Positions 3,728 to 42,820 of a stretch of 64,000 nt of DNA are shown here, one piece after another; position 1 is the stretch's first letter, and each line of letters begins with the position of its first letter. The translations under genes were made by a program, and so were the position numbers. The stretch lies in contig DATLVR010000066.1 in the NCBI GenBank assembly GCA_035577265.1, positions 93,819-157,818 of the forward strand, given 5' to 3'. The notes below the pieces were generated by a model. It had not been told where the DNA came from. It did no database searches and worked only from the letters and a program-made list of their open reading frames with translations. This DNA comes from Verrucomicrobiia bacterium (lineage in GTDB: Bacteria > Verrucomicrobiota > Verrucomicrobiia > Limisphaerales > UBA11358).

Positions 3728-4765
3728 GTGACACAACACGAAACATTCTCAAATCTGCTCCGCGGTGACGCGCCTGTATTGTCGCTCGCGCCGATGCAGG
3801 ACGTGACCACCATCGATTTCATGCGCGTCGTCGCGCGTTACGGCGGGCCGGATGTTTACTGGACGGAATTCTTCCGCGTCCACGGCGATTCGCGGCCGGA
3901 AAAGTGGATTCTCGATTCCATCACCAAAAATCCCACCGGCCGGCCCGTCATCGCCCAGATGATCGGCAATGACATCCCCGCGCTCGTGCGCAACGCGAAA
4001 CTGCTCCAGCAATATCCCGTTGCCGCGATCGACCTGAACCTCGGCTGTCCCGCGCCGATCGTGTATCGCAAATGCGCGGGCGGCGGCCTGCTGCGCGAGC
4101 CGCAACGCATTGACGCCATCCTTGGTGCGCTGCGCGACGCAGTGAAAATTCCTTTCACGGTGAAAACGCGGCTTGGCTTTGAGTCACCCGCCGAGTTCGA
4201 CACGCTGCTGCCGGTTTTCGCGAAGCATTCGCTTGATTTGCTCACGGTCCACGCGCGCACCGTCGTGCAAATGTATCGGCCCGGCGTGCGCTACGACCTC
4301 ATTGCGCAGGCGGCGCGCGAGCTGCACTGCCCGGTGTTTGCCAACGGCAATGTCCACAGCGCGGCGCAGGCGCAGGCGTTGCTGGCCGAAACCGGCGTGC
4401 GTGGATTGATGATCGGGCGCGGCGCCATCCGCAATCCGTGGCTGTTCGACCAGGTCCGCGCGCAACTGCGAGGTGAAGAAATAAAACTGCCGACCGGGCG
4501 CGATGTGCTGGCCTACGTCCGCGAACTGTGGGAGAACGAAATCACGCCCGGCGTGAAGGAGTCGTCGCAGGTGATGCGCATGAAGAAATTCATGAACTTC
4601 ATCGGCGACGGCGTGGGTGAGAAATTCCTGCACGACATCCGCCGCGTGGCGACGACGGCGGATTTCTTTCGCGTGTGTGAAGCCTCTCTGAACCACGACG
4701 ACCCCATGCCGCTGGAGCCACAGGCGGTTTCGGAAACGCCTCTGGATTTGCCGGCGGCGTTTTAA
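3728..4765 (+). CDS. tRNA-dihydrouridine synthase (Dus family)
   Basis: LAPMQDVTTIDFMR N-terminus, DLNLGCP and TIM-barrel Dus-like sequence. GTG start. Confidence 0.8.
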   Translation: MTQHETFSNLLRGDAPVLSLAPMQDVTTIDFMRVVARYGGPDVYWTEFFRVHGDSRPEKWILDSITKNPTGRPVIAQMIGNDIPALVRNAKLLQQYPVAAIDLNLGCPAPIVYRKCAGGGLLREPQRIDAILGALRDAVKIPFTVKTRLGFESPAEFDTLLPVFAKHSLDLLTVHARTVVQMYRPGVRYDLIAQAARELHCPVFANGNVHSAAQAQALLAETGVRGLMIGRGAIRNPWLFDQVRAQLRGEEIKLPTGRDVLAYVRELWENEITPGVKESSQVMRMKKFMNFIGDGVGEKFLHDIRRVATTADFFRVCEASLNHDDPMPLEPQAVSETPLDLPAAF

Positions 4766-4769
4766 ATCG

Positions 4770-4817
4770 GTTCCACCTCCCTGCTGTTCCACCTCCCTGC
4801 TGTTCCACCTGCCTGCT
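4770..4817. repeat. three tandem copies of a 16-nt unit (gttccacctccctgct)
   Basis: Read directly: 4770-4785, 4786-4801 and 4802-4817 (third copy has one change). Lies between the dus stop and the PAP2 gene start. Confidence 0.9.
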
Positions 4818-4861
4818 TGTGAGCGAAACGGCTTGCCGCTAGGATTTGCCCCTTTGACCAA

Positions 4862-5758
4862 ATGACCGATTCCATGGCCGATAAAATTAAATGGCAGTCC
4901 CGGCTGCGCGCGGTGCTGCCGCATGAATGGCTTTTTGGCGCCTACCTGCTGCTGACCGGGCTGCGGCTGTTCGTCCGCGACGGCGCGGCGCGGCCCTGGT
5001 CGTTTTTGTTTTTCGGCTGTTTTGCCGCCAGCATCGGGATTTTTTTCTGGGCGGAACGGAACTTGACCCCGTGGCGCTGGCGGGTGCGCCTGTTGTTTTA
5101 TCCGTGTGCCATGGGCATCTCGTTTTACGCGATGGGCGTGGCGGTGCCGCTCCTGGGAAACGGGAAGGTGGACACCATGCTCCTCGGTTGGGACCGGGCG
5201 TTGCTTGGCGAAACGCCGGCGGTGGCCTGGGAACCGTGGTTGCGTCCATGGGTGGAGGACGTGGCGATGACGGGCTACCTCTTTTTCTTTTATTACCTGG
5301 TCGCGGGACCGGCCGTTTATTGCATCCAAAATCTGCGGCTGTTCCGCACGTGCATCGTGGGTTTGCTCACGATGTATGCCCTGGCGTTCACGAGCTACAC
5401 GGTGTTCCCGGCGGGCGGGCCGTGGCGCTGGATGACGTTTGTGACGCCGCTGCACGGGCCGTGGGTGCTGGACTGGGCGCTCGGTCCGGTGAACGCCGGA
5501 AGCAATGCCGTGGACGTTTTTCCGAGCGTGCATCTGGCCGCATCGCTGTATCTGCTGATGTTCGACTGGCAGCACGGACGACGCAGGTTCTGGGTGCATC
5601 TGCTGCCGTGCGCGGTTCTGTGGTGGTCCACCATGTATTTGCGCTTCCACTACTTTGTGGACCTGCTCGCCGGCGTGGTGATGGCGCTGGCGGGTTGGGG
5701 AATGGCGCAGGCCTATGCGCGGTCGGCGCAGGCACGGCGCGTGGATGGCGCGGATTGA
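4862..5758 (+). CDS. PAP2-superfamily-like integral membrane protein
   Basis: Multi-TM ORF with PSVHLAA and RFHYFVDLLAG, resembling the C-terminal PAP2 phosphatase motifs. Confidence 0.55.
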   Translation: MTDSMADKIKWQSRLRAVLPHEWLFGAYLLLTGLRLFVRDGAARPWSFLFFGCFAASIGIFFWAERNLTPWRWRVRLLFYPCAMGISFYAMGVAVPLLGNGKVDTMLLGWDRALLGETPAVAWEPWLRPWVEDVAMTGYLFFFYYLVAGPAVYCIQNLRLFRTCIVGLLTMYALAFTSYTVFPAGGPWRWMTFVTPLHGPWVLDWALGPVNAGSNAVDVFPSVHLAASLYLLMFDWQHGRRRFWVHLLPCAVLWWSTMYLRFHYFVDLLAGVVMALAGWGMAQAYARSAQARRVDGAD

Positions 5759-30117: not shown

Positions 30118-30741
30118 TCATTCCATTTCGCGTGGCGGGAGGATGCGCTTTTCGATCCCCGGTTCACGCACGGCAGCATAGTGCTTCCAAAACCACGGCC
30201 AATAATCGTCGTCGAACACTTGCAAGCGCGGATAGCCTTGAATCACCGCGCCGAGATACGCCCAGTCGCCAGGGTTCTTCACGAGTCCGGCTTTGAGGGG
30301 ATTGAGCAAGACGTAATCGGCACAAGCCAGGCTGAATGCCTGGCGCTGGCGCTCTGCCGTGGTCAACACATGATCGTGTGGCTGATGCTGAAATTTCGCG
30401 GGCTTGAGGAACGGGCCGAGTTGGGCGCGCAGGAATTTGATGCCGTTACGCTGGTCGGCGTCGCAACGCACGCCCATCCAGACAAAATGCAGATGGTCGG
30501 GCATCAAACAATATGCCGGGCAAAGCAACCCCTCGCGTGCGGCGGCGTGCAATTGCATCTCACGAAACGCGGCGTGGAAAGGCGCGTTGAGCCAGCCGCG
30601 CTGACGCAGGTGGATGGGCATCGTCCAGAAAACCACGGCATCGGCTTGATAAAACTCGCGCTTGAGGCGCGGCAGGTAATGTGAGAATTCCGAACGCGGC
30701 TTACGCTCGTCCGGATCGGGCGGCGGCGGGTTGGTGGGCAT
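30118..30741 (-). mobile_element. REP-associated tyrosine transposase (RAYT; IS200/IS605 Y1 HUH family)
   Basis: YCLMPDHLHFVW (HUH motif) and ADYVLLNPLKAGLV (catalytic Tyr region). Flanked on both sides by family-1 REPs. Confidence 0.75.
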
Positions 30742-30753
30742 GGCAAAAATTTA

Positions 30754-30945
30754 GCGCGGACTGACGTCCGCGGCTACCAAGATTCGTAGCCGCCGACGTC
30801 AGTCGGCGCAAATGTCTTCCGAGAGGTTTGGCTTTTTGCCTGGTGCCCGGCATTTCGTGCGGTTGTCGGTGATTTATTTCAGATGGCGCGGACTAACGCC
30901 CACGGCTACTTGGCTTTGTGGCCGCCGATGTGAATCGGCGCAAAC
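30754..30945. repeat. REP/BIME-like array, family 1: two B-A pairs
   Basis: B at 30754 and 30886, A at 30786 and 30918. Same units as 29779-30112. Confidence 0.85.
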
Positions 30946-31019
30946 GGCTTTGCGATGAAGCGACAAGTTTTTATTTTCATTCGCGCCAACTTGCCGCATC
31001 TTCACCGTCACGAATTTTT

Positions 31020-32867
31020 ATGGCTGACAAAACGAAGCACAATTACGACGAGAGCAAGATCAAGACGCTGTCCTCACTGGAGCACATCCGGCTGCGCACC
31101 GGCATGTATATCGGGCGCATCGGCAACGGCAACAATCCCGACGACGGCTGTTACGTCCTGCTCAAGGAGGTCGTGGACAATGCGATTGACGAATACATCA
31201 TGGGCCACGGCAAGGAGGTCGAGATCAAGATCGCCGACGGCCGCGTCAGCGTGCGCGATTTCGGGCGCGGCATCCCGCTCGGCAAGGTCGTGGACTGCGT
31301 CTCCAAGATCAACACCGGCGCGAAATACAACGACGACGTGTTCCAGTTCAGCGTCGGCTTGAACGGCGTCGGCACCAAGGCCGTCAATGCGCTGTCAAAA
31401 TTCTTTCTCGTCCGCAGCCATCGCGATGGCGAATTTGCCGAGGCCGCGTTCAAGCAGGGCAAACTCAAGAAGGAAGATGCCGGCAAGACCAAGGAGCCCA
31501 ACGGCACGCTCATTGAGTTCGAGGCCGATCCGGAGATTTTCAAGGACAGCCAATTCCGCGACGAGCACATCGAGCGCCGGCTGCGGCATTACAGTTATCT
31601 GAATACCGGCCTGAAACTGATTTTAAAAACGCCGGATTCGCCCGAGCCAAAAATTTTCCAATCGCGCCACGGCCTGATGGACCTGGTGATGGAAGACATG
31701 GCGACCGACGGCAGCGAGCCGATCTATGCGCCGTTGCATTACGCGGGCAAGACGCTGGAGTTTTGTTTCACCCACAGCAACTCGCGCTACGGCGAGACGT
31801 TTTATTCCTTCGTCAACGGCCAATACACCAGCGACGGCGGCACGCATCTGAGCGCGTTCCGCGAGGGCCTGCTCAAGGCGGTGAACGAACATTGCAACGG
31901 CAAATACGAAGGCGACGACGTGCGCGAATGCATGGTCGGCGCGGTGGCGATTCGCCTGAAAGACCCGCTGTTCGAGTCGCAGACCAAAAACAAACTGGGC
32001 AACACGGAAATCCGCACCGAGCTGGTCAACAACGTGCGCGAGGAACTGCTGCATTTTTTCCAGCGCAACAAGGCGATCGCCGACAAGATCATCGAAAAGG
32101 TGGCGGACACGCAGCAGTTGCGGAAGGAATTGCAGGCGGTCAAGAAGCTCGCGCGCGAACGCGCCAAGTCCATCACGCTGCGCATCCCGCAGTTGAAGGA
32201 CTGCAAAAATCATTTCGACAAGAAGAAGGAAAAGGGCAAGGGCACGATGGTGTTCATCTGCGAAGGCCAGTCCGCCGCCGGCTCAATCACGAGCTGCCGC
32301 GACGTGAACAATCAGGCCGTGTTCGTGCTGAAAGGCAAGCCGCTCAACGTCTGGGATCTCAAGCGCGACGTGATGTATAAGAACGACGAGATGTATAACC
32401 TCATGCAGTCGCTCAACGTCGAGGACAACACCGAGGGCTTGCGCTACGACAAGGTCATCCTGGCCACCGACGCGGACGTGGATGGCATGCACATCCGCAA
32501 TCTGATGATCACGTATTTCTTCCGCTTCTTCGAGCAGCTCGTCCACGACGGCCACGTCCATGTGCTGGAGACGCCGCTGTTCCGCGTGCGCAACAAGGAG
32601 AACACGATTTACTGCTACAGCGAAACCGAGCGGGACAACGCGGTGAAGGAACTCGGCGGCAAGCCGGAGATCACGCGGTTCAAAGGCTTGGGCGAAATCA
32701 GCCCGAAAGAATTCCAGCAGTTCATCGGCAAGGAAATGCGGACGAGCAAGGTGGAATACGCCCCGCGTGCCGAGTCCGGCCCGATCTTCAACTTCTACAT
32801 GGGCAAGAACACGCCCGAGCGGAAGGATTACATCATGGACCGGCTGGTTGTGCCGGTGGAGGAGTAA
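31020..32867 (+). CDS. parE: type IIA DNA topoisomerase subunit B (topoisomerase IV ParE / GyrB-like)
   Basis: LEHIRLRTGMYIG, VVDNAIDE, GGTH, PLKGK-type TOPRIM region (VLKGKPLNV, ATDADVDGMHI). Start at MADKTKHNYDES (31020). Confidence 0.85.
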   Translation: MADKTKHNYDESKIKTLSSLEHIRLRTGMYIGRIGNGNNPDDGCYVLLKEVVDNAIDEYIMGHGKEVEIKIADGRVSVRDFGRGIPLGKVVDCVSKINTGAKYNDDVFQFSVGLNGVGTKAVNALSKFFLVRSHRDGEFAEAAFKQGKLKKEDAGKTKEPNGTLIEFEADPEIFKDSQFRDEHIERRLRHYSYLNTGLKLILKTPDSPEPKIFQSRHGLMDLVMEDMATDGSEPIYAPLHYAGKTLEFCFTHSNSRYGETFYSFVNGQYTSDGGTHLSAFREGLLKAVNEHCNGKYEGDDVRECMVGAVAIRLKDPLFESQTKNKLGNTEIRTELVNNVREELLHFFQRNKAIADKIIEKVADTQQLRKELQAVKKLARERAKSITLRIPQLKDCKNHFDKKKEKGKGTMVFICEGQSAAGSITSCRDVNNQAVFVLKGKPLNVWDLKRDVMYKNDEMYNLMQSLNVEDNTEGLRYDKVILATDADVDGMHIRNLMITYFFRFFEQLVHDGHVHVLETPLFRVRNKENTIYCYSETERDNAVKELGGKPEITRFKGLGEISPKEFQQFIGKEMRTSKVEYAPRAESGPIFNFYMGKNTPERKDYIMDRLVVPVEE

Positions 32868-32871
32868 CTTC

Positions 32872-33019
32872 TCCCTCTCCGCCTCGACCGGGGAGATTCC
32901 CTTCTCCGCTCTGGGGAGAAGGTGGCCGCAGGCCGGATGAGGTGCCGCGCCCTGACTCCACTTCGCGCGGGGGGTGAGGTGTCGAACTCTAAAATCTTTG
33001 ACACGAATTACACGAATTG
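32872..33019 (+). repeat. left copy of the composite direct repeat bracketing the inter-topoisomerase island
   Basis: 32872-32919 is 48/48 identical to 38667-38714. 32923-32986 is 61/64 identical to 38799-38862. Ends in a cacgaattacacgaattga tail. Confidence 0.9.
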
Positions 33020-33071
33020 AAAAGGTCGGCCGTGCGTAGGCGCAGCCGGCCAAAATCTTTGCCAAACATTT

Positions 33072-33977
33072 ATGTCTGACTCTGAAGCGACCGCCGAAAA
33101 AGCCTATGCGCCGCCAGCGAGCCAACTGCTTCAGCTCGGGGAACCGCGCGGCAACGAACGGCAGGCTTGGCGTGATTACGCCGCGATGGGCATTTCGACA
33201 GCGGCGGTGCCGGAGTTGATCCGAATGGCCACCGATGACGTGCTGCACGACAGCCCGCGAGACAGCCAGCTCGTCTGGGCGCCGGTTCACGCGTGGCGCG
33301 CACTTGGGCAATTGCGCGTGCCGGAAGCCATCGCGCCGCTGCTCATGCTGTTTCAACGCGCTGATGATGCCGATGAATGGGTCATGTCGGATTTGCCCAA
33401 AGCTCTGGCGCAAATCGGCGCAGCGGCCATTGAGCCGGTTGCAAATTACCTGGCCGACACGACGCGCGGCGAATGGGAGCGCGTGACGGCAGCGGATGCT
33501 CTCGGCCACATCGGCCAGGCGCATCCGGAATTGCGCGCCGAGTGCGTGACACGGGTGGCGGCACAGTTGGAAAACTTCGCCGAACAATCAGACACGCTGA
33601 ACGCATTTTTGGTTGCGCCGCTCTGGAATTTGCGGGCCGTTGAAGCGATGTCCGTCCTCGAGCGTGCATTTGCGTCCGGCCACGTGGACGAATCGGTCAA
33701 TGGCGATTTGGAGGACCTCCAAATTCATTTCGGATTGAAAGTGGCGCGCGAGCATCCGCCCAAACCGAATTCGCTCACGGAAATGAACCGGGAAATCGCC
33801 GGCTTGCATGAAGAAATCCAGGCTTACGAACGGGAAAACGCCGAATTGCGTTCGACGCTGGACGAACTGACGTTTGAACCGCCACCCATGCCGTATCTGG
33901 CTCCGCCGAAAATTGGCCGCAATGACCCGTGCCCCTGCGGCAGTGGGAAAAAGTATAAGAAGTGTTGCGGGGCCTGA
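33072..33977 (+). CDS. SEC-C motif protein (HEAT/DUF1186-like body)
   Basis: C-terminal [22 protein letters not shown] metal-binding motif. Confidence 0.7.
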
Positions 33978-33993
33978 AACGACGGGTGCTTTC

Positions 33994-34173
33994 GGCGAAA
34001 TCAGCCCGAAAGAATTCGCGCAATGCATCGGCAAGGTGCTGGCGCACGGCCACCGCGTGGAATACGCGCGACGCGCCGGGTCCGGGCCGATCTTCAACTT
34101 CTACATGGGCAAGAACACACCTGGGCGGAAGGATTCCATCATGGACCGGCTGGTCGTGCCGGTGGAGGAATGA
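33994..34173 (+). pseudogene. displaced, diverged copy of the last ~59 codons plus stop of the topo subunit B gene
   Basis: [45 protein letters not shown]-stop aligns with 32691-32867. Confidence 0.9.
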
Positions 34174-34223
34174 TTTGTGAAACGGATTGTTTCCAATTTC
34201 GAAAAACAGTATTCAATTTGGGC

Positions 34224-35006
34224 ATGCTCCCGCGACTGAAAGTCGTATCCATTATCAAACTGCTTTCGAGTGGCCGCACCAAGCCTTGCCTTGTTCTTGC
34301 TCAGGATGAAGACGGTGTGGAATGTGAAGTTGTTGTCAAATGGCGTTCCGGCCCGGAAACAAAAGACACTGGTGGCATCTGCGAGCTCATTAGTTCACTG
34401 CTCGCTGATGATTTTGACCTGCCGGCTCCGAAAGCAATGTTGGTTGACGTTGAACCCGATTTTCATCGTGCGGTTCCATGGCCAGAGATTGCAAAGTTGG
34501 TGAAGGCCAGCGCAGGCCCGAATTTTGCCACCAAATTCTTGCCAAGCATGACCACCTGGCCCACCGGACGACCGGTCGCATCATCATTGCGCACTCGCGC
34601 CTCGGAGATTTTTGCGTTTGATGCCTTGATTGAAAATCCGGACCGACGAATCAACAAGCCGAACATACTTTGGAGCGGTGAAGATTTGTGCTTGTGTGAC
34701 CATGAGCAGGCTTTTTCTTTTCTGCACGGCGTTATTGGTTGGCGGCCGGCATGGTCGGGACAAGGTCTTGAATTTCTCCGCAACCATGTGTTTTATGTCC
34801 AATTGAAAGGGCAAATCTGTGATTGGAGCAGGTTGAGTGGAGCGCTGGAAGCCATGAATGACAAGCGCCTGATTGATTATGCGACGGCGGTGCCAGATGA
34901 ATGGAAGACGGGAAATGATGCAACCGACCGCATTTTAGGTTATCTTAAAGGCGCGCGACAAAACAAGGCTGCGCTGTTTGCAGCCATTGACCAAATACTA
35001 AAATGA
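34224..35006 (+). CDS. HipA-like / PI3-4-kinase-fold Ser/Thr kinase domain protein (C-domain only)
   Basis: FAFDALIENPDRRINKPNILW (catalytic-loop-like D..N) and LCLCDHEQAF (DxG-like). About 260 aa. Start ATG 34224. Confidence 0.6.
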   Translation: MLPRLKVVSIIKLLSSGRTKPCLVLAQDEDGVECEVVVKWRSGPETKDTGGICELISSLLADDFDLPAPKAMLVDVEPDFHRAVPWPEIAKLVKASAGPNFATKFLPSMTTWPTGRPVASSLRTRASEIFAFDALIENPDRRINKPNILWSGEDLCLCDHEQAFSFLHGVIGWRPAWSGQGLEFLRNHVFYVQLKGQICDWSRLSGALEAMNDKRLIDYATAVPDEWKTGNDATDRILGYLKGARQNKAALFAAIDQILK

Positions 35007-35872
35007 AAACGACATACACATTCACGATCTTGCGATACGTGCATGACATCGCTACCGGCGAATTTGTCAATGTGGGCGTGGCTCTTTACGCTCCCGAGGC
35101 AAAATATGTCAGTGCCATCTGCTGCCCGCGCTACGGACGCTTGAGTAAAATGTTTCTCGATGTGAACGGCGACCAACTCCGCCCGCTGATGCGTTTTATA
35201 CAAGCACGCTTCGAGGAATACACCCTGAAATTGAACGATGAGTTGGCTTTGCATGGCCAGCCAAAGAGCGTCATGGAAATCGCCGCAAACATTCTTCCTC
35301 CAGATGACAGCTCTCTGCAATGGTCGGAACCGGGTGGTGGCTTCACCGAAAATCCCGGCGTGACCTTGGAACAGCTTTACAGCCGGCTTGTCGAGAAATA
35401 CGAACAACGCGCACAGGTGCCAAGCCGCACCGATGATGAGGTGTGGCGCGGCTTTAAAAAGGAGCTTGAAGTCAAACAAGTCCTGGCAAAGTTGCAGCCG
35501 AAACGGATTATCGCCAAAGATTACGACCATGAATTTGACCATGCTTGGAAGAATGGCGCTTGGAATCTTTACCAGCCCATCTCATTTGATTTAATTGATG
35601 CGGAAAGCCTCTTAGACAAGGCCAATCGCTGGCTTGGTCGTGCCACAATTCTTCAAGAGTCGCAGGAAAAATTTAAGCTGCACATGCTCTTGGGTGAACC
35701 TCGTTTGGAAAAACTAAAGTCCGCATACGGAAAAGCATTGAATATCCTCAACCGGATGCCGGTCAAAAAGGAATTTGTTCGCGAGGACGAAGCATCCAAT
35801 TTTTCCAAAGCCTTGGCAGAGGAAATCGAAAAGCATAAGTCGGCAATTTTTTATCATGCGGACATTGGTTGA
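35003..35872 (+). CDS. DUF3037-like protein, unknown function
   Basis: N-terminus YTFTILRYVHDIATGEFVNVGVALY matches my recollection of the DUF3037 signature. ATGA overlap with the kinase gene. Confidence 0.5.
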   Translation: MKTTYTFTILRYVHDIATGEFVNVGVALYAPEAKYVSAICCPRYGRLSKMFLDVNGDQLRPLMRFIQARFEEYTLKLNDELALHGQPKSVMEIAANILPPDDSSLQWSEPGGGFTENPGVTLEQLYSRLVEKYEQRAQVPSRTDDEVWRGFKKELEVKQVLAKLQPKRIIAKDYDHEFDHAWKNGAWNLYQPISFDLIDAESLLDKANRWLGRATILQESQEKFKLHMLLGEPRLEKLKSAYGKALNILNRMPVKKEFVREDEASNFSKALAEEIEKHKSAIFYHADIG

Positions 35873-36080
35873 AATTCAAGATGCCGTTGCCCAGCTTCCC
35901 GGCGACGAACGAAAAGCTTTGCAGATGTGGCTCAATTCCCAAGGTGAGTCCGGGTTGACCGCGCCGGAAGAACAGCGCCTGCTGCGTTCGCTGAATGAAG
36001 CCGTCCGCGACATTGATGCCGGCAAAGGCGTGCCGATAAATGATGTCCGCAAGCGGGTGGCATCATGGGCTTCAAAATAA
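35856..36080 (+). CDS. type II antitoxin (addiction-module component-like)
   Basis: 74 aa, MRTLVEIQDAVAQLPGDERKAL... Overlaps both neighbours and sits just upstream of a RelE/ParE-type toxin gene. Confidence 0.55.
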   Translation: MRTLVEIQDAVAQLPGDERKALQMWLNSQGESGLTAPEEQRLLRSLNEAVRDIDAGKGVPINDVRKRVASWASK

Positions 36081-36352
36081 TTTTCTCGCCGCAAGCGATC
36101 GCGGACCTGAAGGAAGTCGTCCGCCACATTGCCAGGGATGATCCCGCCACCGCCGTCCGCGTCGGCTACGAACTGATTGATCGTGTAGAAATTCTCGAAA
36201 ACTTTCCATTGCTCGGTGCGCCGTATGCCAAACGCCCGGGCGTGCGCAAGCTGGTGTCGCGGCATTCCTCATTTTCTACCGTCCGAGGCTGGAGGAAAAT
36301 ACTGTGGACATCCTGCGTTACAGGCACGGCGCGCGCACCGGGCCGGAGTTAA
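36065..36352 (+). pseudogene. RelE/ParE-superfamily toxin, frameshifted
   Basis: N-part [38 protein letters not shown] is in frame 1. The conserved [24 protein letters not shown] is in another frame from 36265. Confidence 0.6.
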
Positions 36353-36492
36353 GTTCACTTGATTGGACCGACTCGTCGTGCCGACGGAGGAATGTCGCGA
36401 AAGTCTTCGCTTGGGCGAAAGTTGACGGAGGGGCTGGCAATCATTGCCACTGGCGCAACGGCGCGGGTTCGATTACACCATGGCATCAACAT

Positions 36493-37362
36493 ATGAAAAT
36501 CGAATCCAAAAAATTCCGCGTCCGCGAAGGCGAAACGGTCAAACTCAAAAAATGGCCGACCCAAGTGAAGCCGTTTTACCAGTCGAAGGAGGATTACAAA
36601 TCCAGACTCGAAGCGAGCACCACGGAATTGAGCGAACTCCAGAGCCTGCTTTATGCCGACAACCACCATTCGTTGCTGCTGATTTTTCAGGCGATGGACG
36701 CGGCGGGCAAGGACGGCGCCATCAAGCACGTCATGTCCGGCATTAACCCGCAGGGCTGCCAAGTCTACAGCTTCAAGCATCCGAGCGCGACGGATTTGGA
36801 GCACGATTTTCTCTGGCGCACCACGCGCTGCCTGCCGGAACGCGGGAACATCGGCATCTTCAACCGGTCCTATTACGAGGAGGTGCTCATCGTGCGGGTC
36901 CACCCCGAAATTTTACAAGCGCAGGATATGCCGCCGGAATCGCTCGACGACAAAAAATTCTGGGAACACCGCTTCCGTTCCATCAACGAGCTGGAAAAGC
37001 ATCTGGACCGCAATGGCACCCGCATCGTGAAATTTTTTCTGCACGTGTCCAAGGACGAACAGCGCCGCCGCTTCCTGTCGCGGATCGACGCGCCGGAGAA
37101 AAATTGGAAGTTCAGCCAGACCGACGTCGAGGAGCGCAAATTCTGGCCGGATTACATGCAGGCGTATGAAGCATGCCTGGGCGCGACAAGCACCGGCCAT
37201 GCCCCGTGGTTCGTGATTCCCGCCGACGACAAGGAAAACGCCCGGCTCATCATTTCGCAGGTCGTGCTCGACACGTTGAACGCCTTGAAGATGAAGTATC
37301 CCGAAACCTCCAAGGCGCGCCGCAAGGAATTGCTGGCCATCCGCAAGTCCCTCGAGAAATAA
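36493..37362 (+). CDS. polyphosphate kinase 2 (PPK2) family protein
   Basis: [14 protein letters not shown] Walker-A-like motif, [10 protein letters not shown], and typical PPK2 length starting at MKIESKKF. Confidence 0.8.
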
Positions 37363-37380
37363 ATTCCGTTCCGCCCGAGC

Positions 37381-38631
37381 ATGTCCGCCGACGCAACAAT
37401 GTTCATCGACAAGCCGGTGGTATTGACGATTTTTGCGCTCACTTATCTGGGCATCGCCATGGGACGCGTGCCCGGCCTGAAACTGGATCGCACCGGCATC
37501 GTCATGTTGGGAGCGATCGCCATGATGGTGTTCGGCGGGCTGCCGACGACGGACGCCATCGGCTTCATCAACTGGCCGACCATCCTGCTGTTGTTCGGTT
37601 TCTTTGTGCTCTCAGCCCAGCTGCGGTTGTCCGGATTTTTCGACGCCGTGGCGGGCGGCCTCGCGCGGAAGCTTGGCAGCCCGGCGCGATTTCTGATGTT
37701 GTTGATGCTGGCCACGGCGGGCCTTTCGGCCTTCCTGAACCATGACATCGTCTGCTTTGTTTTTACACCGATTGTCGCGATGGCGCTGTTGAAACGGCAG
37801 TTGAATCCCGTGCCGTTCCTGATCGCGCTGGCCATCGCCAGCAACATCGGCGCGGCGGCCACGCTGGTGGGCAATCCACAGGACATGATGATCGGGCAGA
37901 TGGCCGGGCTGGGGTTTGGGCATTACGCGTTATGGTGCATCGTGCCGGTGATTTTCGCATTGGGCTGCGCCCATGCCATCATCTGGCGGCTCTCGCGCCA
38001 TCGCCTGGCGGCCAAGGTGACGTCACCTTTCGATCCCGTCGTGACGCCACGTCCGTTCGACCGTCCACACACGATCAAAGGACTGGTCATCCTCGTTGTC
38101 GTCATCGGCCTGTTCTTCTCGCCGCTGCCCGCTGAATTGGTCGCCTTGACAGCGGCGGCCATCCATCTGGCCAGCCCGAAGTTCCGCACCGAAGATTTGT
38201 TGAGGCTCGTGGACTGGCCGATTCTGGTGCTGTTCATGGGACTCTTCGTGGTGACCGGCGCGTTTCAGACCACCGGCTACGGCGAACAAGCCGTGCAATG
38301 GCTGGCTCAAGGCGGGCTGCATCTGCAATCGCCACCGACGCTGGCGCTGGTCACGGCTGCCCTGTCCAACCTCATCAACAACTCCGCCGCCGTGATGCTG
38401 CTGCTGAAGGTGGCGGACATCACGCAACCACCGGCCGCCTATGTGCTGGCACTGGCGAACAGTTTCGGCGGCAGCCTGCTCATCATCGGCAGCGTCGCCA
38501 ACATCATCGTGGTGCAGCAGGCCCGTGAACTGGGCATCCACATTTCCTTCCGCGACTTCGCCCGGCTCGGCATTCCGGTGACGCTGGCGGCGCTCGCCGG
38601 TTTGCTGGTGTGGGTGAGGTTGATGGCGTGA
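37381..38631 (+). CDS. anion permease of the ArsB/NhaD (SLC13-like) superfamily
   Basis: 416 aa, about 11 TM, LTYLGIAMGRVPGLKLDRTGIVMLGA N-terminus typical of this family. Confidence 0.65.
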   Translation: MSADATMFIDKPVVLTIFALTYLGIAMGRVPGLKLDRTGIVMLGAIAMMVFGGLPTTDAIGFINWPTILLLFGFFVLSAQLRLSGFFDAVAGGLARKLGSPARFLMLLMLATAGLSAFLNHDIVCFVFTPIVAMALLKRQLNPVPFLIALAIASNIGAAATLVGNPQDMMIGQMAGLGFGHYALWCIVPVIFALGCAHAIIWRLSRHRLAAKVTSPFDPVVTPRPFDRPHTIKGLVILVVVIGLFFSPLPAELVALTAAAIHLASPKFRTEDLLRLVDWPILVLFMGLFVVTGAFQTTGYGEQAVQWLAQGGLHLQSPPTLALVTAALSNLINNSAAVMLLLKVADITQPPAAYVLALANSFGGSLLIIGSVANIIVVQQARELGIHISFRDFARLGIPVTLAALAGLLVWVRLMA

Positions 38632-38642
38632 GGCGCCCGGTT

Positions 38643-38903
38643 AACCACGAAATACACGAAAACAATTCCCTCTCCGCCTCGACCGGGGAGATTCCCTTCT
38701 CCGCTCTGGGGAGACTTGAGCCGTTTGGGAAGCTGCGAAAGGAATTCGCCGGAGGCGAAGGCCCGCAGGGCCAAGCGAGCGGGAGTGAGCGAGTCCACTG
38801 GCCGCAGGCCGGATGAGGTGCCGCGCCCTGATTCCACTTCGCGCGGAGGGCGAGGTGTCGAATATCAACTGAAGAAGTTCCTGAGACGAATTTCACGAAT
38901 TGA
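38643..38903 (+). repeat. right copy of the composite direct repeat, with an 84-nt internal insertion
   Basis: Same blocks as 32872-33019, interrupted at 38715-38798. cacgaa-type motifs at both ends. Confidence 0.9.
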
Positions 38904-39004
38904 CTCGAATGCGAATGGCACGGATGGTGCCATCTCTCAATTTTACCGCTCGCGAATCTTGCCCCGCCCGTTCACTTCTGGCTTAATACGCGCCGCTTTA
39001 TATC

Positions 39005-41131
39005 ATGTCAGCCAAGAAAAAGAAAGATTCCGGTCAGCCGGAATTGCCCATCGAAGGCACGCCACCCGCCGCGCCGTCGCAAACCGCGCCCGCGAAGAAA
39101 TCTTCCGGGCCCGATGGCAACGGCGCGGACCACGTCATCGCCGAAACGGTGGAGCCCGTCGTTCACAAGCCGTTCGATCCGAAACAATCCGGCGGCGGTT
39201 TGCACACACGCGTGGATCGCGGGTTTCTGGATTATGCCAGCTACGTCATTCGCGACCGCGCGATTCCGAATCTTGCCGACGGTTTCAAGCCGGTGCAGCG
39301 CCGCATCATGTGGGCGTTGCACGAGAAGGACGACGGCCGCTTCATCAAGGTCGCCAACGTCGTCGGCCACACGATGCAGTATCATCCGCACGGCGACGCA
39401 TCCATCGGCGACGCGCTCGTGGTGCTGGCGAACAAACGCTATCTCATCGAGGGCCAGGGAAATTTCGGCAACATTTTCACCGGCGATCCCGCGGCTGCGT
39501 CGCGTTACATCGAATGCCGGCTGACGGAACTCGCGCGCACGGAGGTTTTCAACGACTCCATCACCGAGTTCATTCCCAGCTACGACGGGCGCAACAAAGA
39601 ACCCGTGTCGCTGCCGTGCAAACTGCCGCTGACCTTGATGCTCGGCACGGAAGGCATCGCGGTCGGTTTGAGTGCGCGCATTCTGCCGCACAATTTCCCC
39701 GAGCTGCTCGAAGCGCAGATCGCGATCCTCAAGAAGCAGCCGTTCAAGTGTCTGCCGGATTTTTCGACCGGCGGCCTGATGGATGCGCGCGATTATCAGG
39801 ACGGCAAAGGTTCGGTGAAAGTCCGCGCCAAGATCAAGACCAAGGACGAGTCCACCGTCGTCATCAAGGAAATCCCGCCGACCACCACGACGGAATCGCT
39901 GATCGCGTCCATCGAGGACGCGGTGCAAAAGGGCAAACTCAAGGTAAAATCCATCAACGATTTCACGTCCGAAACCGTCGAGATCGAAATCAAATGTCCG
40001 TCCGGCGTGGATGCCGAGAAAATGGTGGACGCGCTGTATGCCTTCACCGATTGCGAAGTCTCCATCGCGAGCCGCATCGTCGTCATCAAGGACAACCGCC
40101 CGGTCGAGCTGACGGTGTCGGAAATTCTGCGCGAGAACACCGACCAGCTCGTCGCCATTCTCAAGCGTGAACTGGAGTTGCGGGAGAAGAACCTGCTCGA
40201 CGAACTGCATTACCGCACGCTGGAACGCATCTTCATCGAGGAGCGCATCTACAAATTGATCGAGAAGTGCAAGACGAACGAAGCGGTGTTCGCCGCCGTT
40301 TATGAAGGCTTCAAGCCGTTCCAGAAGCAGCTCGTGCGCGAGATCGTGGATGCCGACGTGGAGAAGCTGTTGCAGGTCCGCATCCGCCGCATTTCGCTCT
40401 TCGACATCAACAAACATCGCGAGGAGATGGAGAAGACGAAGGCCGAGCTCGCCGAGACTCTGAAGAATCTCAAGAGTCTCACGAAATATGTCATCGGCCA
40501 TCTCGAAACCTTGCTGGAAAAATACGGCCCGCAGTATCCGCGCCTGACCACCAAGTCCGCGCGCCACGAGGAAGTGGACGTGAAAGCGGTGGCGTTCAAG
40601 TCGTTCAAGGTCGCCTACGACCGCGCGACCGGCTACGTCGGCTACAAGGTGAGCGGCGACGAGTTCAAGCTCGAATGCACCAAGTTCGACAAGGTGCTGC
40701 TCGTGTTCAAGGATGGGACTTACAAAGTCAACGAACTGCCGGAGAAATTATTCGTCGGGCCGGAGCTGTTTTACTGCGGTCTGCCGGACCGCGAAAAAGT
40801 TTTCACCTGCGCCTACACGGATCGCAACGCGAGCTACCTGAAACGGTTCACGTTCGGCGGCACGATTATGAACAAGGCCTATTCGTGCATCCCGGAGAAG
40901 TCGCGCATCCTCTTCTTTGCGCCCGAGACGCCGAAAGTGCTTTATGTCCGCTACAAGCCGGCATTGCACCAGAAGGTCTCGCAACAGACCTGCGAACCGG
41001 AACATGTGGAAGTGAAATCGCCCAAGACCCGCGGCCGTCAGCTTTCCATCAAGGACATTTCATCCGTCACCGCCGAGCCGACGCGCGGCTGGGATGAAAC
41101 CGCGGCGACCACGAAGATCGTGTTTGCGTGA
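39005..41131 (+). CDS. parC: type IIA DNA topoisomerase subunit A (topoisomerase IV ParC / GyrA-like)
   Basis: FLDYASYVIRDRAIPNLADGFKPVQRRIMW, HPHGD, RYIECRLT (catalytic Tyr region). Confidence 0.85.
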   Translation: MSAKKKKDSGQPELPIEGTPPAAPSQTAPAKKSSGPDGNGADHVIAETVEPVVHKPFDPKQSGGGLHTRVDRGFLDYASYVIRDRAIPNLADGFKPVQRRIMWALHEKDDGRFIKVANVVGHTMQYHPHGDASIGDALVVLANKRYLIEGQGNFGNIFTGDPAAASRYIECRLTELARTEVFNDSITEFIPSYDGRNKEPVSLPCKLPLTLMLGTEGIAVGLSARILPHNFPELLEAQIAILKKQPFKCLPDFSTGGLMDARDYQDGKGSVKVRAKIKTKDESTVVIKEIPPTTTTESLIASIEDAVQKGKLKVKSINDFTSETVEIEIKCPSGVDAEKMVDALYAFTDCEVSIASRIVVIKDNRPVELTVSEILRENTDQLVAILKRELELREKNLLDELHYRTLERIFIEERIYKLIEKCKTNEAVFAAVYEGFKPFQKQLVREIVDADVEKLLQVRIRRISLFDINKHREEMEKTKAELAETLKNLKSLTKYVIGHLETLLEKYGPQYPRLTTKSARHEEVDVKAVAFKSFKVAYDRATGYVGYKVSGDEFKLECTKFDKVLLVFKDGTYKVNELPEKLFVGPELFYCGLPDREKVFTCAYTDRNASYLKRFTFGGTIMNKAYSCIPEKSRILFFAPETPKVLYVRYKPALHQKVSQQTCEPEHVEVKSPKTRGRQLSIKDISSVTAEPTRGWDETAATTKIVFA

Positions 41132-41718: not shown

Positions 41719-41769
41719 ACGCGCGGCTGGGATGAAAAGGCAACGACGACGAAAATTATTTTAGCTTGA
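41719..41769 (+). repeat. diverged displaced copy of the last 16 codons plus stop of the topo subunit A gene
   Basis: TRGWDEKATTTKIILA-stop versus the authentic TRGWDETAATTKIVFA-stop (41081-41131). Same length and in frame. Confidence 0.8.
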
Positions 41770-42705: not shown

Positions 42706-42772
42706 ACTTGGACCTGCCATGCTCAAGCCGCACAAAAAATAAAGGCCGCGCATTTCATCACACCCGGCGAAG

Positions 42773-42820
42773 CGCGGCTGGGATGAAACCGCGGCAACCA
42801 CCAAGATTGTGTTTGCGTGA
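42773..42820 (+). repeat. well-preserved displaced copy of the last 15 codons plus stop of the topo subunit A gene
   Basis: 45/48 nt identical to 41084-41131. All three differences are synonymous. Followed by a hairpin at 42822-42852. Confidence 0.9.

Follow-up and report, generated by a model that had tools for sequence, protein, structure and literature searches.

The 64,000-nt stretch analyzed here (the window) lies on C66, a 161-kb contig of G000, the genome of a soil verrucomicrobium of the Limisphaerales type from an uncultured lineage. In it, the genes for subunits B and A of a topoisomerase IV-like enzyme (hereafter B and A) are kept apart by 6.1 kb. Between them, flanked by two copies of a composite repeat (R1 and R2), lie a SEC-C protein gene, a dead copy of the B 3' end, a kinase/DUF3037 pair, a toxin-antitoxin (TA) pair with a broken toxin, a PPK2 gene, and a permease gene (Table 1). 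Pfam, NCBIfam, and PADLOC, with a repeat search for the dead copy, recovered every member of this list, which a first-pass annotation had drawn up. We conclude that the B-A junction is a recurrent insertion hotspot in this host and its relatives and that the interval is made up of three or more layers acquired one by one, probably displaced by homology-anchored entry. Throughout, protein domains were assigned with Pfam and NCBIfam and defense candidates with PADLOC.

Table 1. Features between and around the topoisomerase subunit genes B and A, in window coordinates
Feature	Coordinates	Strand	Support and remarks
Subunit B, type IIA topoisomerase, ParE/GyrB-like	30918..32867	+	649 aa; Pfam DNA_gyraseB, Toprim, HATPase_c
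R1, composite repeat resembling repetitive extragenic palindromic (REP) elements and bacterial interspersed mosaic elements (BIMEs)	32872..32986	+	Blocks of 48 and 64 nt; 4 nt past B stop; four hairpin modules
CACGAA double motif GACACGAATTACACGAATTG	33000..33019	+	Piece of a dispersed repeat or of a family of miniature inverted-repeat transposable element (MITE) ends
SEC-C module, proposed layer nearest B	33020..33990	+	Pfam; 74.7% DNA identity to G063 over 33020-33986
HEAT-repeat protein with C-terminal SEC-C motif	33072-33977 (open reading frame [ORF])	+	Pfam
B-end remnant 2, dead copy of last 62 codons, stop kept	33991..34176	+	88% identical to 32688-32870; still an open frame
HipA_2 kinase	34170-35006	+	Pfam; PADLOC PDC-M66A, E 7.6e-63, positions 9-269/270
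DUF3037 protein	35003-35872	+	Pfam; PADLOC PDC-M66B, E 1.7e-83, positions 2-279/281
ParDE-like TA module	35856..36362	+	Pfam ParE_toxin; antitoxin 35856-36080, toxin 36065-36362
B-end remnant 3, roughly the final 29 nt of B (28-31 nt)	36364..36394	+	Repeat family D5; ends GGAGGAATG like remnant 2
PPK2, ADP-polyphosphate phosphotransferase	36493-37362	+	True start ATG 36493; NCBIfam/Pfam
CitMHS/ArsB-type permease	37381-38631	+	Pfam
CACGAA motif AACCACGAAATACACGAAAAC	38640..38662	+	Identical to terminal repeat of a ~110-150-nt MITE-like family
R2, second composite copy	38667..38862	+	38667-38714 and 38799-38862, with an 84-nt hairpin module between
Conserved region 5' of A, AATCTTGCC...CTTCTGGCTTAATACGCGCC	38947..39004	+	Common to relatives with A split from B
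Topoisomerase IV subunit A, short type	39005..41131	+	708 aa; NCBIfam NF007209, 824 bits (cut-off 644); Pfam DNA_topoisoIV

B fell below the cut-offs of the NCBIfam gyrB and parE models, and a separate gyrB-like gene on contig C73 is 35% identical to it. B is the anchor gene of the locus, and its 3' ~186 nt (32688-32870) are the template of the downstream remnants. Adjacent, overlapping by 4 nt, and both matched over their full length by PADLOC, HipA_2 and DUF3037 form a candidate defense system of the PDC-M66 type. Their G+C content is 0.49, against 0.575 for the genome, and their tetranucleotide distance exceeds the 95th percentile of 2-kb windows; in the same scan, the composition of the remaining modules was typical of the genome. 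Compared with the intact 100-aa toxins of G139, G007, G063, and G078, the ParE-like toxin has lost 1 nt near position 36266 and has TGG for its TGA stop. The PPK2-permease pair (36493..38631), the module farthest from B, is present in a single copy in the genome.

B and A had been suspected to be former neighbors, and comparison with relatives strongly supports this. We searched 163 genomes of the genus with the last 1 kb of B joined to the first 1 kb of A. The pair is present in 97 genomes, and in 22 of these the joined query aligned in one piece, with B and A abutting. The other gaps in the genus measure 60 to 125 nt, 0.6 to 3.5 kb, 12 kb, 25 kb, or 103 kb; there is one inversion, and many genomes carry the two genes on separate contigs. 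In an order-wide survey of 80 loci from named Verrucomicrobiota metagenome-assembled genomes (MAGs; subdivision 3/Limisphaerales), A begins at most ~140 nt from the B stop codon or overlaps it at 27 loci, the most distant relatives included.

Leftover B ends divide the interval. Counting the intact terminus as the first, we found remnant 2 and the much shorter remnant 3, which was absent from the first-pass annotation and whose local alignment score exceeded that of all 300 of 300 shuffles; a fourth remnant, sought before A and inside the SEC-C module, was not found. Every remnant in the host and its relatives reaches the B stop codon, and the left ends vary, giving lengths of 29, ~60 to 80, 75, 100, 126, 186, 204, and 855 nt. 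In the host, length declines with distance from B, from 186 nt to 31 nt. The host has two remnants, G020 has three, and at least one is present in each of G063, G027, G051, G149, L087, L120, L131, L145, and L153. Most are closest to the B end of their own genome (92 to 96% identity in G020 and G063, the G063 remnant at 96%), whereas the G027 remnant is nearer to foreign B ends (92%) than to its own (80%). Each remnant-cargo junction that we examined also occurs with an intact B in another genome.

As the first-pass annotation had proposed, we compared the locus with related genomes, and the gene content between B and A proved to differ from one to the next. The closest relative, G003, has the order B-HipA_2-DUF3037-A, and its true B stop and HipA_2 start share an ATGA overlap identical to the one between the dead copy and HipA_2 in the window. 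The order is B-TA-A in G007 and G078, B-TA-TA2-(100-nt B remnant)-SEC-C in G063, and B-TA followed by a B remnant in G027; in all four genomes the ParDE-like module directly follows B. In G020, the three remnants lie among unrelated cargo (a two-component system, rubrerythrin, DUF2231, and an unknown 699-aa protein), and at L087 a single Fic gene precedes the 855-nt remnant. Further cargo across the relatives includes PaaX-like, peptidase S15, desaturase, and two-component genes. That several insertion events filled the interval is supported: cargo varies, the same modules recur in other orders with up to three remnants, and B-end remnants delimit the layers. A contiguous PPK2-permease pair occurs in G146 and G154 at 78 to 79% identity, where the ~3 kb fetched to its left and to its right show no homology to B or A, and close relatives carry PPK2 without the permease on contigs other than that of B.

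A repeat search reproduced the bracketing composite repeat in all its parts. The first blocks are identical (32872-32919 and 38667-38714, 48/48), the second blocks match at 61 of 64 positions (32923-32986 and 38799-38862, 95%), the 84-nt interruption of the second copy lies between both blocks at 38715-38798, and cacgaa-type motifs stand beside both copies (33000-33019, 38640-38662, and 38882-38900). An exact repeat of 48 nt in 64 kb cannot be a chance event. R1 and R2, each built from four hairpin modules, fold into local hairpins of a stability not above that of shuffles, the 84-nt module standing slightly apart (z = -2.05). That module is single copy in the host genome and has an 87% homologue in G011, where it too directly follows a hairpin module ending in GGGGAGA. 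Elsewhere in the host, R modules occur at ~19 places as partial copies and in other combinations. Contig C75 has a third full composite, 84% identical and likewise placed after a stop codon. The generic family element consists of a TCCCTCTCC...GGGGAGAGGG hairpin, followed by GGTGAGGTGTCGAA and a tail with three CRCGAATT repeats.

REP elements and BIMEs with REP-associated tyrosine transposases (RAYTs) are known in forms of the E. coli and Pseudomonas type. Like these, R1 and R2 combine short hairpin units into mosaics that are intergenic, placed just past stop codons, and dispersed in many copies and variable combinations. They differ in that no RAYT has been tied to the R modules and that the full composite has only three copies. 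The host has 11 RAYT-like genes, one directly upstream of B at 30118-30741; this RAYT, the one of the 11 whose flanks we looked at, is flanked by a REP differing in sequence from the R modules. In G092 and G142, a short R form stands directly past the B stop, in G092 after a CTTC spacer as in the window, and in both genomes the sequence beyond it is unrelated to the window cargo. No R copy was found at the empty B-A sites of genus genomes with abutting genes or upstream of A in G142 (in the incomplete G092 bin, A was not found, and its B-A interval lies outside this comparison). With the window interval as a blastn query, the other fetched B-A intervals gave no R-like copy except the one module in G011. 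The short B-A spacers of G001, G010, and G026 are filled by REP- or MITE-like elements of other kinds. Because its modules are scattered through the genome, its short form occurs in relatives, and empty sites lack a copy, we take R to belong to a dispersed family and to be a BIME-like mosaic whose hairpin modules are of the REP type, an ordinary repeat and, on our reading, not the insertion site. A generic REP scattered hundreds of times would have spoken against the first-pass reading; the genome-wide search for further block copies did reveal a dispersed intergenic element, but one with tens of copies and not hundreds.

The suggestion that the insertions used or generated the repeat is not supported: its modules are mosaic and dispersed, empty sites carry no copy, and G142 has none before A. 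One or a few islands entering or leaving by recombination between R1 and R2, either as an att-like site or as an insertion duplication, remain an unlikely explanation of the interval. Direct repeats do stand at both its ends and resemble each other much more than either resembles any other copy, and 112 nt of near-identity would permit RecA-mediated deletion. The internal B-end remnants, with junctions matching true B-cargo junctions, are nevertheless unexplained by a single event, the third composite on C75 marks the modules as generic, and in G092 and G142 an R-like element after B leads into other sequence altogether. Because they are near-identical, R1 and R2 are clearly recent siblings, produced by local copying or gene conversion, and they could support deletion (excision) of the interval. 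We also considered R-mediated translocation of the PPK2-permease pair and found no support for it: in G146, the sequence to the right of the pair has its counterpart on host contig C19, and there is no second pair in the host genome.

The leftover-end signature extends beyond this locus. Among 485 local direct repeats in the host genome (30 to 400 nt, 0.2 to 20 kb apart), 38 have the intact 3' end of a long ORF upstream and a copy downstream, against 7 in the mirrored arrangement. A gene-end-copy pattern like that behind B is found behind A. The 38 include copies of the last ~50 nt of A (41079-41131), which recur twice downstream, at 41719-41769 (78%) and 42768-42820 (92%). Examples on other contigs are C108:33747-38800, C129:26251-28574, C145:21791-22712, C2:8888-11780, and C71:8855-11637.

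We propose that incoming DNA would consist of the 3' part of B with cargo attached. It would recombine homologously inside B, while illegitimate recombination or recombination at microhomology would attach its far end somewhere in the resident B terminus; alternatively, the whole piece might enter as a circle through a single crossover. The incoming copy would restore B, and the old terminus, cut at a varying point, would be pushed downstream with the older cargo. The newest layer would then comprise the intact B end, R1, and the SEC-C gene; the middle layer, remnant 2 (186 nt), HipA_2/DUF3037, and the ParDE-like pair; and the oldest, remnant 3 (29 nt), PPK2, and the permease, followed by the promoter-like region and A. 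This newest-first order agrees with the finding of no remnant between the permease and A, and the variable remnant ends, with junctions that recur behind an intact B elsewhere, fit homology-anchored sequential displacement. We infer the order of events and the recombination mechanism, including the joining chemistry.

Several observations weigh against this reconstruction. The right boundary of the ParDE-like module is the toxin stop in three contexts (G000, G007, and G078), which is unexpected for random illegitimate joins and may point to cassettes with discrete ends or to one common origin. Its left junction, to DUF3037, carries no B remnant, so that some joins depart from the model. The 29-nt remnant is too short to be the sole homology for a Campbell crossover. 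G003 has no PPK2-permease pair between B and A, and the proposed order therefore needs extra loss or replacement events. The likeness of R1 to R2 goes far beyond the chance placement of two family members 5.8 kb apart and indicates some link to the locus. Finally, every genome compared is a MAG.

Sequential displacement via homology-facilitated illegitimate recombination has been proposed for Vibrio cholerae type VI secretion system (T6SS) arrays and for Rhs loci (PMC5361080). Rhs and CdiA-CT orphan modules and the effector-immunity arrays of the V. cholerae T6SS are treated there as displacement arrays (PMC5361080; Jackson et al. 2009, cited therein). The B-A locus shares with them a conserved anchor gene upstream, displaced modules each preceded by an anchor 3' fragment, and, in the order proposed here, the entry of new modules beside the anchor; no integrase was found, and whole arrays are exchanged between strains. 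It differs in having a housekeeping-type topoisomerase gene for its anchor where the others have a polymorphic toxin, and in carrying a defense candidate, a TA pair, and metabolic and transport genes, none of them related to that anchor; moreover, the anchor coding sequence is restored and not given a new tip, and the signature occurs behind many other genes of the genome. Junction positions vary and B is a recombination mosaic, yet the right end of the ParDE-like module is sharp and recurring.

Defense-island and core-gene hotspots of pan-genomes, for example in Pseudomonas (PMC12629846), likewise have a fixed core pair flanking variable cargo enriched in defense-type and TA genes. Compared with such hotspots, the present one splits two subunits of one enzyme, and its gene-end remnants record the order of arrival. 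We lean toward classifying the locus as a core-gene hotspot built by sequential displacement at a topoisomerase pair, with a defense candidate, a decayed TA pair, and metabolic cargo. Integron arrays, as is proposed for this locus, stack small cassettes newest-first behind a fixed point, many of them without a promoter, and here the HipA_2 start overlaps the B stop. Unlike an integron or a cluster of attC sites lacking integron-integrases (CALIN), the locus has no IntI or other integrase on the contig and no repeated hairpin site at cassette boundaries, as judged by a repeat search and not by an attC-model search. Nor does it resemble a composite transposon or insertion sequence (IS), with no transposase domain in the interval and bracketing repeats that are direct, not inverted.

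Some integrative elements target gene 3' ends and carry a replacement end, for example tRNA and tmRNA islands, and phage 21 and e14 at icd. A recombinase encoded elsewhere might in the same way integrate cassettes at the B 3' end, a reading to which we give little weight. The locus resembles tRNA and icd sites in that the target gene remains whole with its end restored, older ends lie displaced downstream, and tandem arrays are possible; 11 tyrosine-recombinase domains are encoded in the host genome, on other contigs, and the boundaries of the ParDE-like module are sharp and recur. The locus departs from such elements in having no integrase, constant crossover core, or att repeats, and its cassettes are 0.5 to 2 kb long with one or two genes. 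No match to the tyrosine recombinase family PF00589 was found on C66, and none of the scanned cargo proteins of the host and its relatives had a Pfam domain of a recombinase or transposase; serine recombinases were covered solely through Pfam scans of ORFs. Remnant left ends, at 29 to 855 nt, share no common core, and variable ends together with the lack of a recombinase argue against a site-specific integrase with a fixed core. The signature behind many unrelated genes would moreover require a recombinase without sequence specificity.

Local rearrangement alone, with tandem duplication of the B end, deletions, and translocation of resident genes but no horizontal transfer, would suit the remnants of G020 and G063, which are closest to their own B ends, and the PPK2-permease and SEC-C homologues, which are ordinary genes at other loci in the genus. 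It is very unlikely all the same: the composition of HipA_2/DUF3037 is foreign, the same modules stand in differing orders across genomes, the G027 remnant is nearer to foreign B ends, and B is patched from tracts that differ widely in their third-position identity to G003. An assembly artifact, with several strain variants of the locus combined by a metagenome assembler, is highly improbable even though a 48-nt exact repeat could mislead short k-mer assembly, and chimerism of the interval is unlikely because the remnants are diverged (~85 to 88% identity) and not identical, with junctions that share no k-mers, because the coding logic of the junctions is coherent, HipA_2 starting in the remnant 2 stop as in that of the true B of G003, and because different projects yielded independent MAGs with this architecture.

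At a hotspot flanked by the two subunit genes of one enzyme, the leftover gene ends allow the gene gains of an uncultured soil lineage to be read in order. If the excess of 38 over 7 and the order-wide recurrence hold, sequential displacement would extend beyond polymorphic-toxin loci, and integrase-free, homology-anchored stacking would be a general route for the spread of defense and TA modules. A wider and distinctly tentative extension is that Limisphaerales-type Verrucomicrobia may have a general, integrase-independent mode of gene capture, in which the terminal tens to hundreds of bases of conserved genes would serve as portable homology arms and small "gene end plus cargo" units would circulate between strains, stack newest-first behind many genes, and be expressed by read-through. 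If true, such capture would be a functional analogue of the integron without integrase or attC, with TA pairs, defense candidates, and single metabolic genes as cargo.

Within B itself, third-codon-position identity to G003 is 50 to 55% over 31368-31667 (B nt 451 to 750), against 80 to 94% elsewhere in the gene. The segment is a recombination tract within the anchor gene, and B is a recombination mosaic. We tried to distinguish vertical inheritance from import of remnant 2 with the HipA_2 pair by codon-position identities to G003, and these were confounded by the mosaic nature of B.

The topoisomerase IV-like B/A pair was not found in 66 of the 163 genus genomes (~40%) by DNA search, supplemented by protein search for several, while the 35%-identical gyrB-like gene is present in all genus genomes with a listed match; because of this distribution, the pair looks accessory at the genus level. 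A stretch of ~55 nt before A, with the arrangement TTGCCC-18 nt-TTAATA, is kept in relatives where A is split from B and is missing where the two abut. The region 38947-39004 looks promoter-like, and A seems to have gained a promoter of its own. A promoter and terminator scan gave no more sites than shuffled sequence, an Rfam scan of 32700-39100 returned one subthreshold chance match and nothing else, and tblastx of the flanks gave mostly noise.

Remnant 2 carries a 20-nt motif, GGTSCTTGCGSACGGCCACC, at 34035-34054, within a 21-nt REP-like replacement that stands in place of 18 nt of B and encodes VLAHGH for EMRTSK. We considered a foreign B allele as the source of the VLAHGH segment and rejected it, the segment proving to be a 20-nt hairpin motif that is dispersed. 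In G051, a B remnant bears this replacement at the same place. The motif has a covarying 4-bp stem (GTGC/GCAC or GTCC/GGAC) and, with at most 3 mismatches, 20 matches in the host genome against 3 for a reversed control; it is also present on C60 and C71 and at L069-L083. A 28-nt pattern containing it occurs in 16 of the 163 genomes of the genus; its contexts are unrelated, and one of them is a conserved site upstream of tRNA-Ser. It is probably a tiny REP-like unit.

The tail of the R family has three CRCGAATT boxes spaced 9 to 10 nt, about one helical turn, apart (33000-33019 and 38882-38912 in the window; C121:6225-6253 and copies on C143 and C68). These boxes look like putative iteron-type sites for some DNA-binding protein. 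The spaced motif CACGAA-N2-5-CACGAA occurs 98 times in the host genome. A MITE-like family of ~110 to 150 nt has inverted ends made of tandem CACGAAA heptads and at least two internal sequence types, with copies at C10:8294-8403, C106:15513-15622, C115:9794-9932, C133:7127-7247, C18:4633-4775, and C44:1724-1848. In G001, an analogous element with CATCGAA ends sits exactly in the B-A spacer.

Two loci in relatives contain further junctions and genes. In G051 (L068, G051:C21, ~4640-4900, B on +), a B fragment comes straight after the N-terminal part of an aminotransferase-like frame, MAGLPKSGIRDFFDIVAKMKDAISLGVGEP, at a chimeric junction ~4.4 kb downstream of B. In G027 (L034, G027:C204, 1093-1899, B on +), a 268-aa ORF had no Pfam match at E <= 0.001. 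It contains HUH-like DHLHLMW and Y...NPV motifs, recognized by eye, and is probably a RAYT- or IS200-like Y1 transposase.

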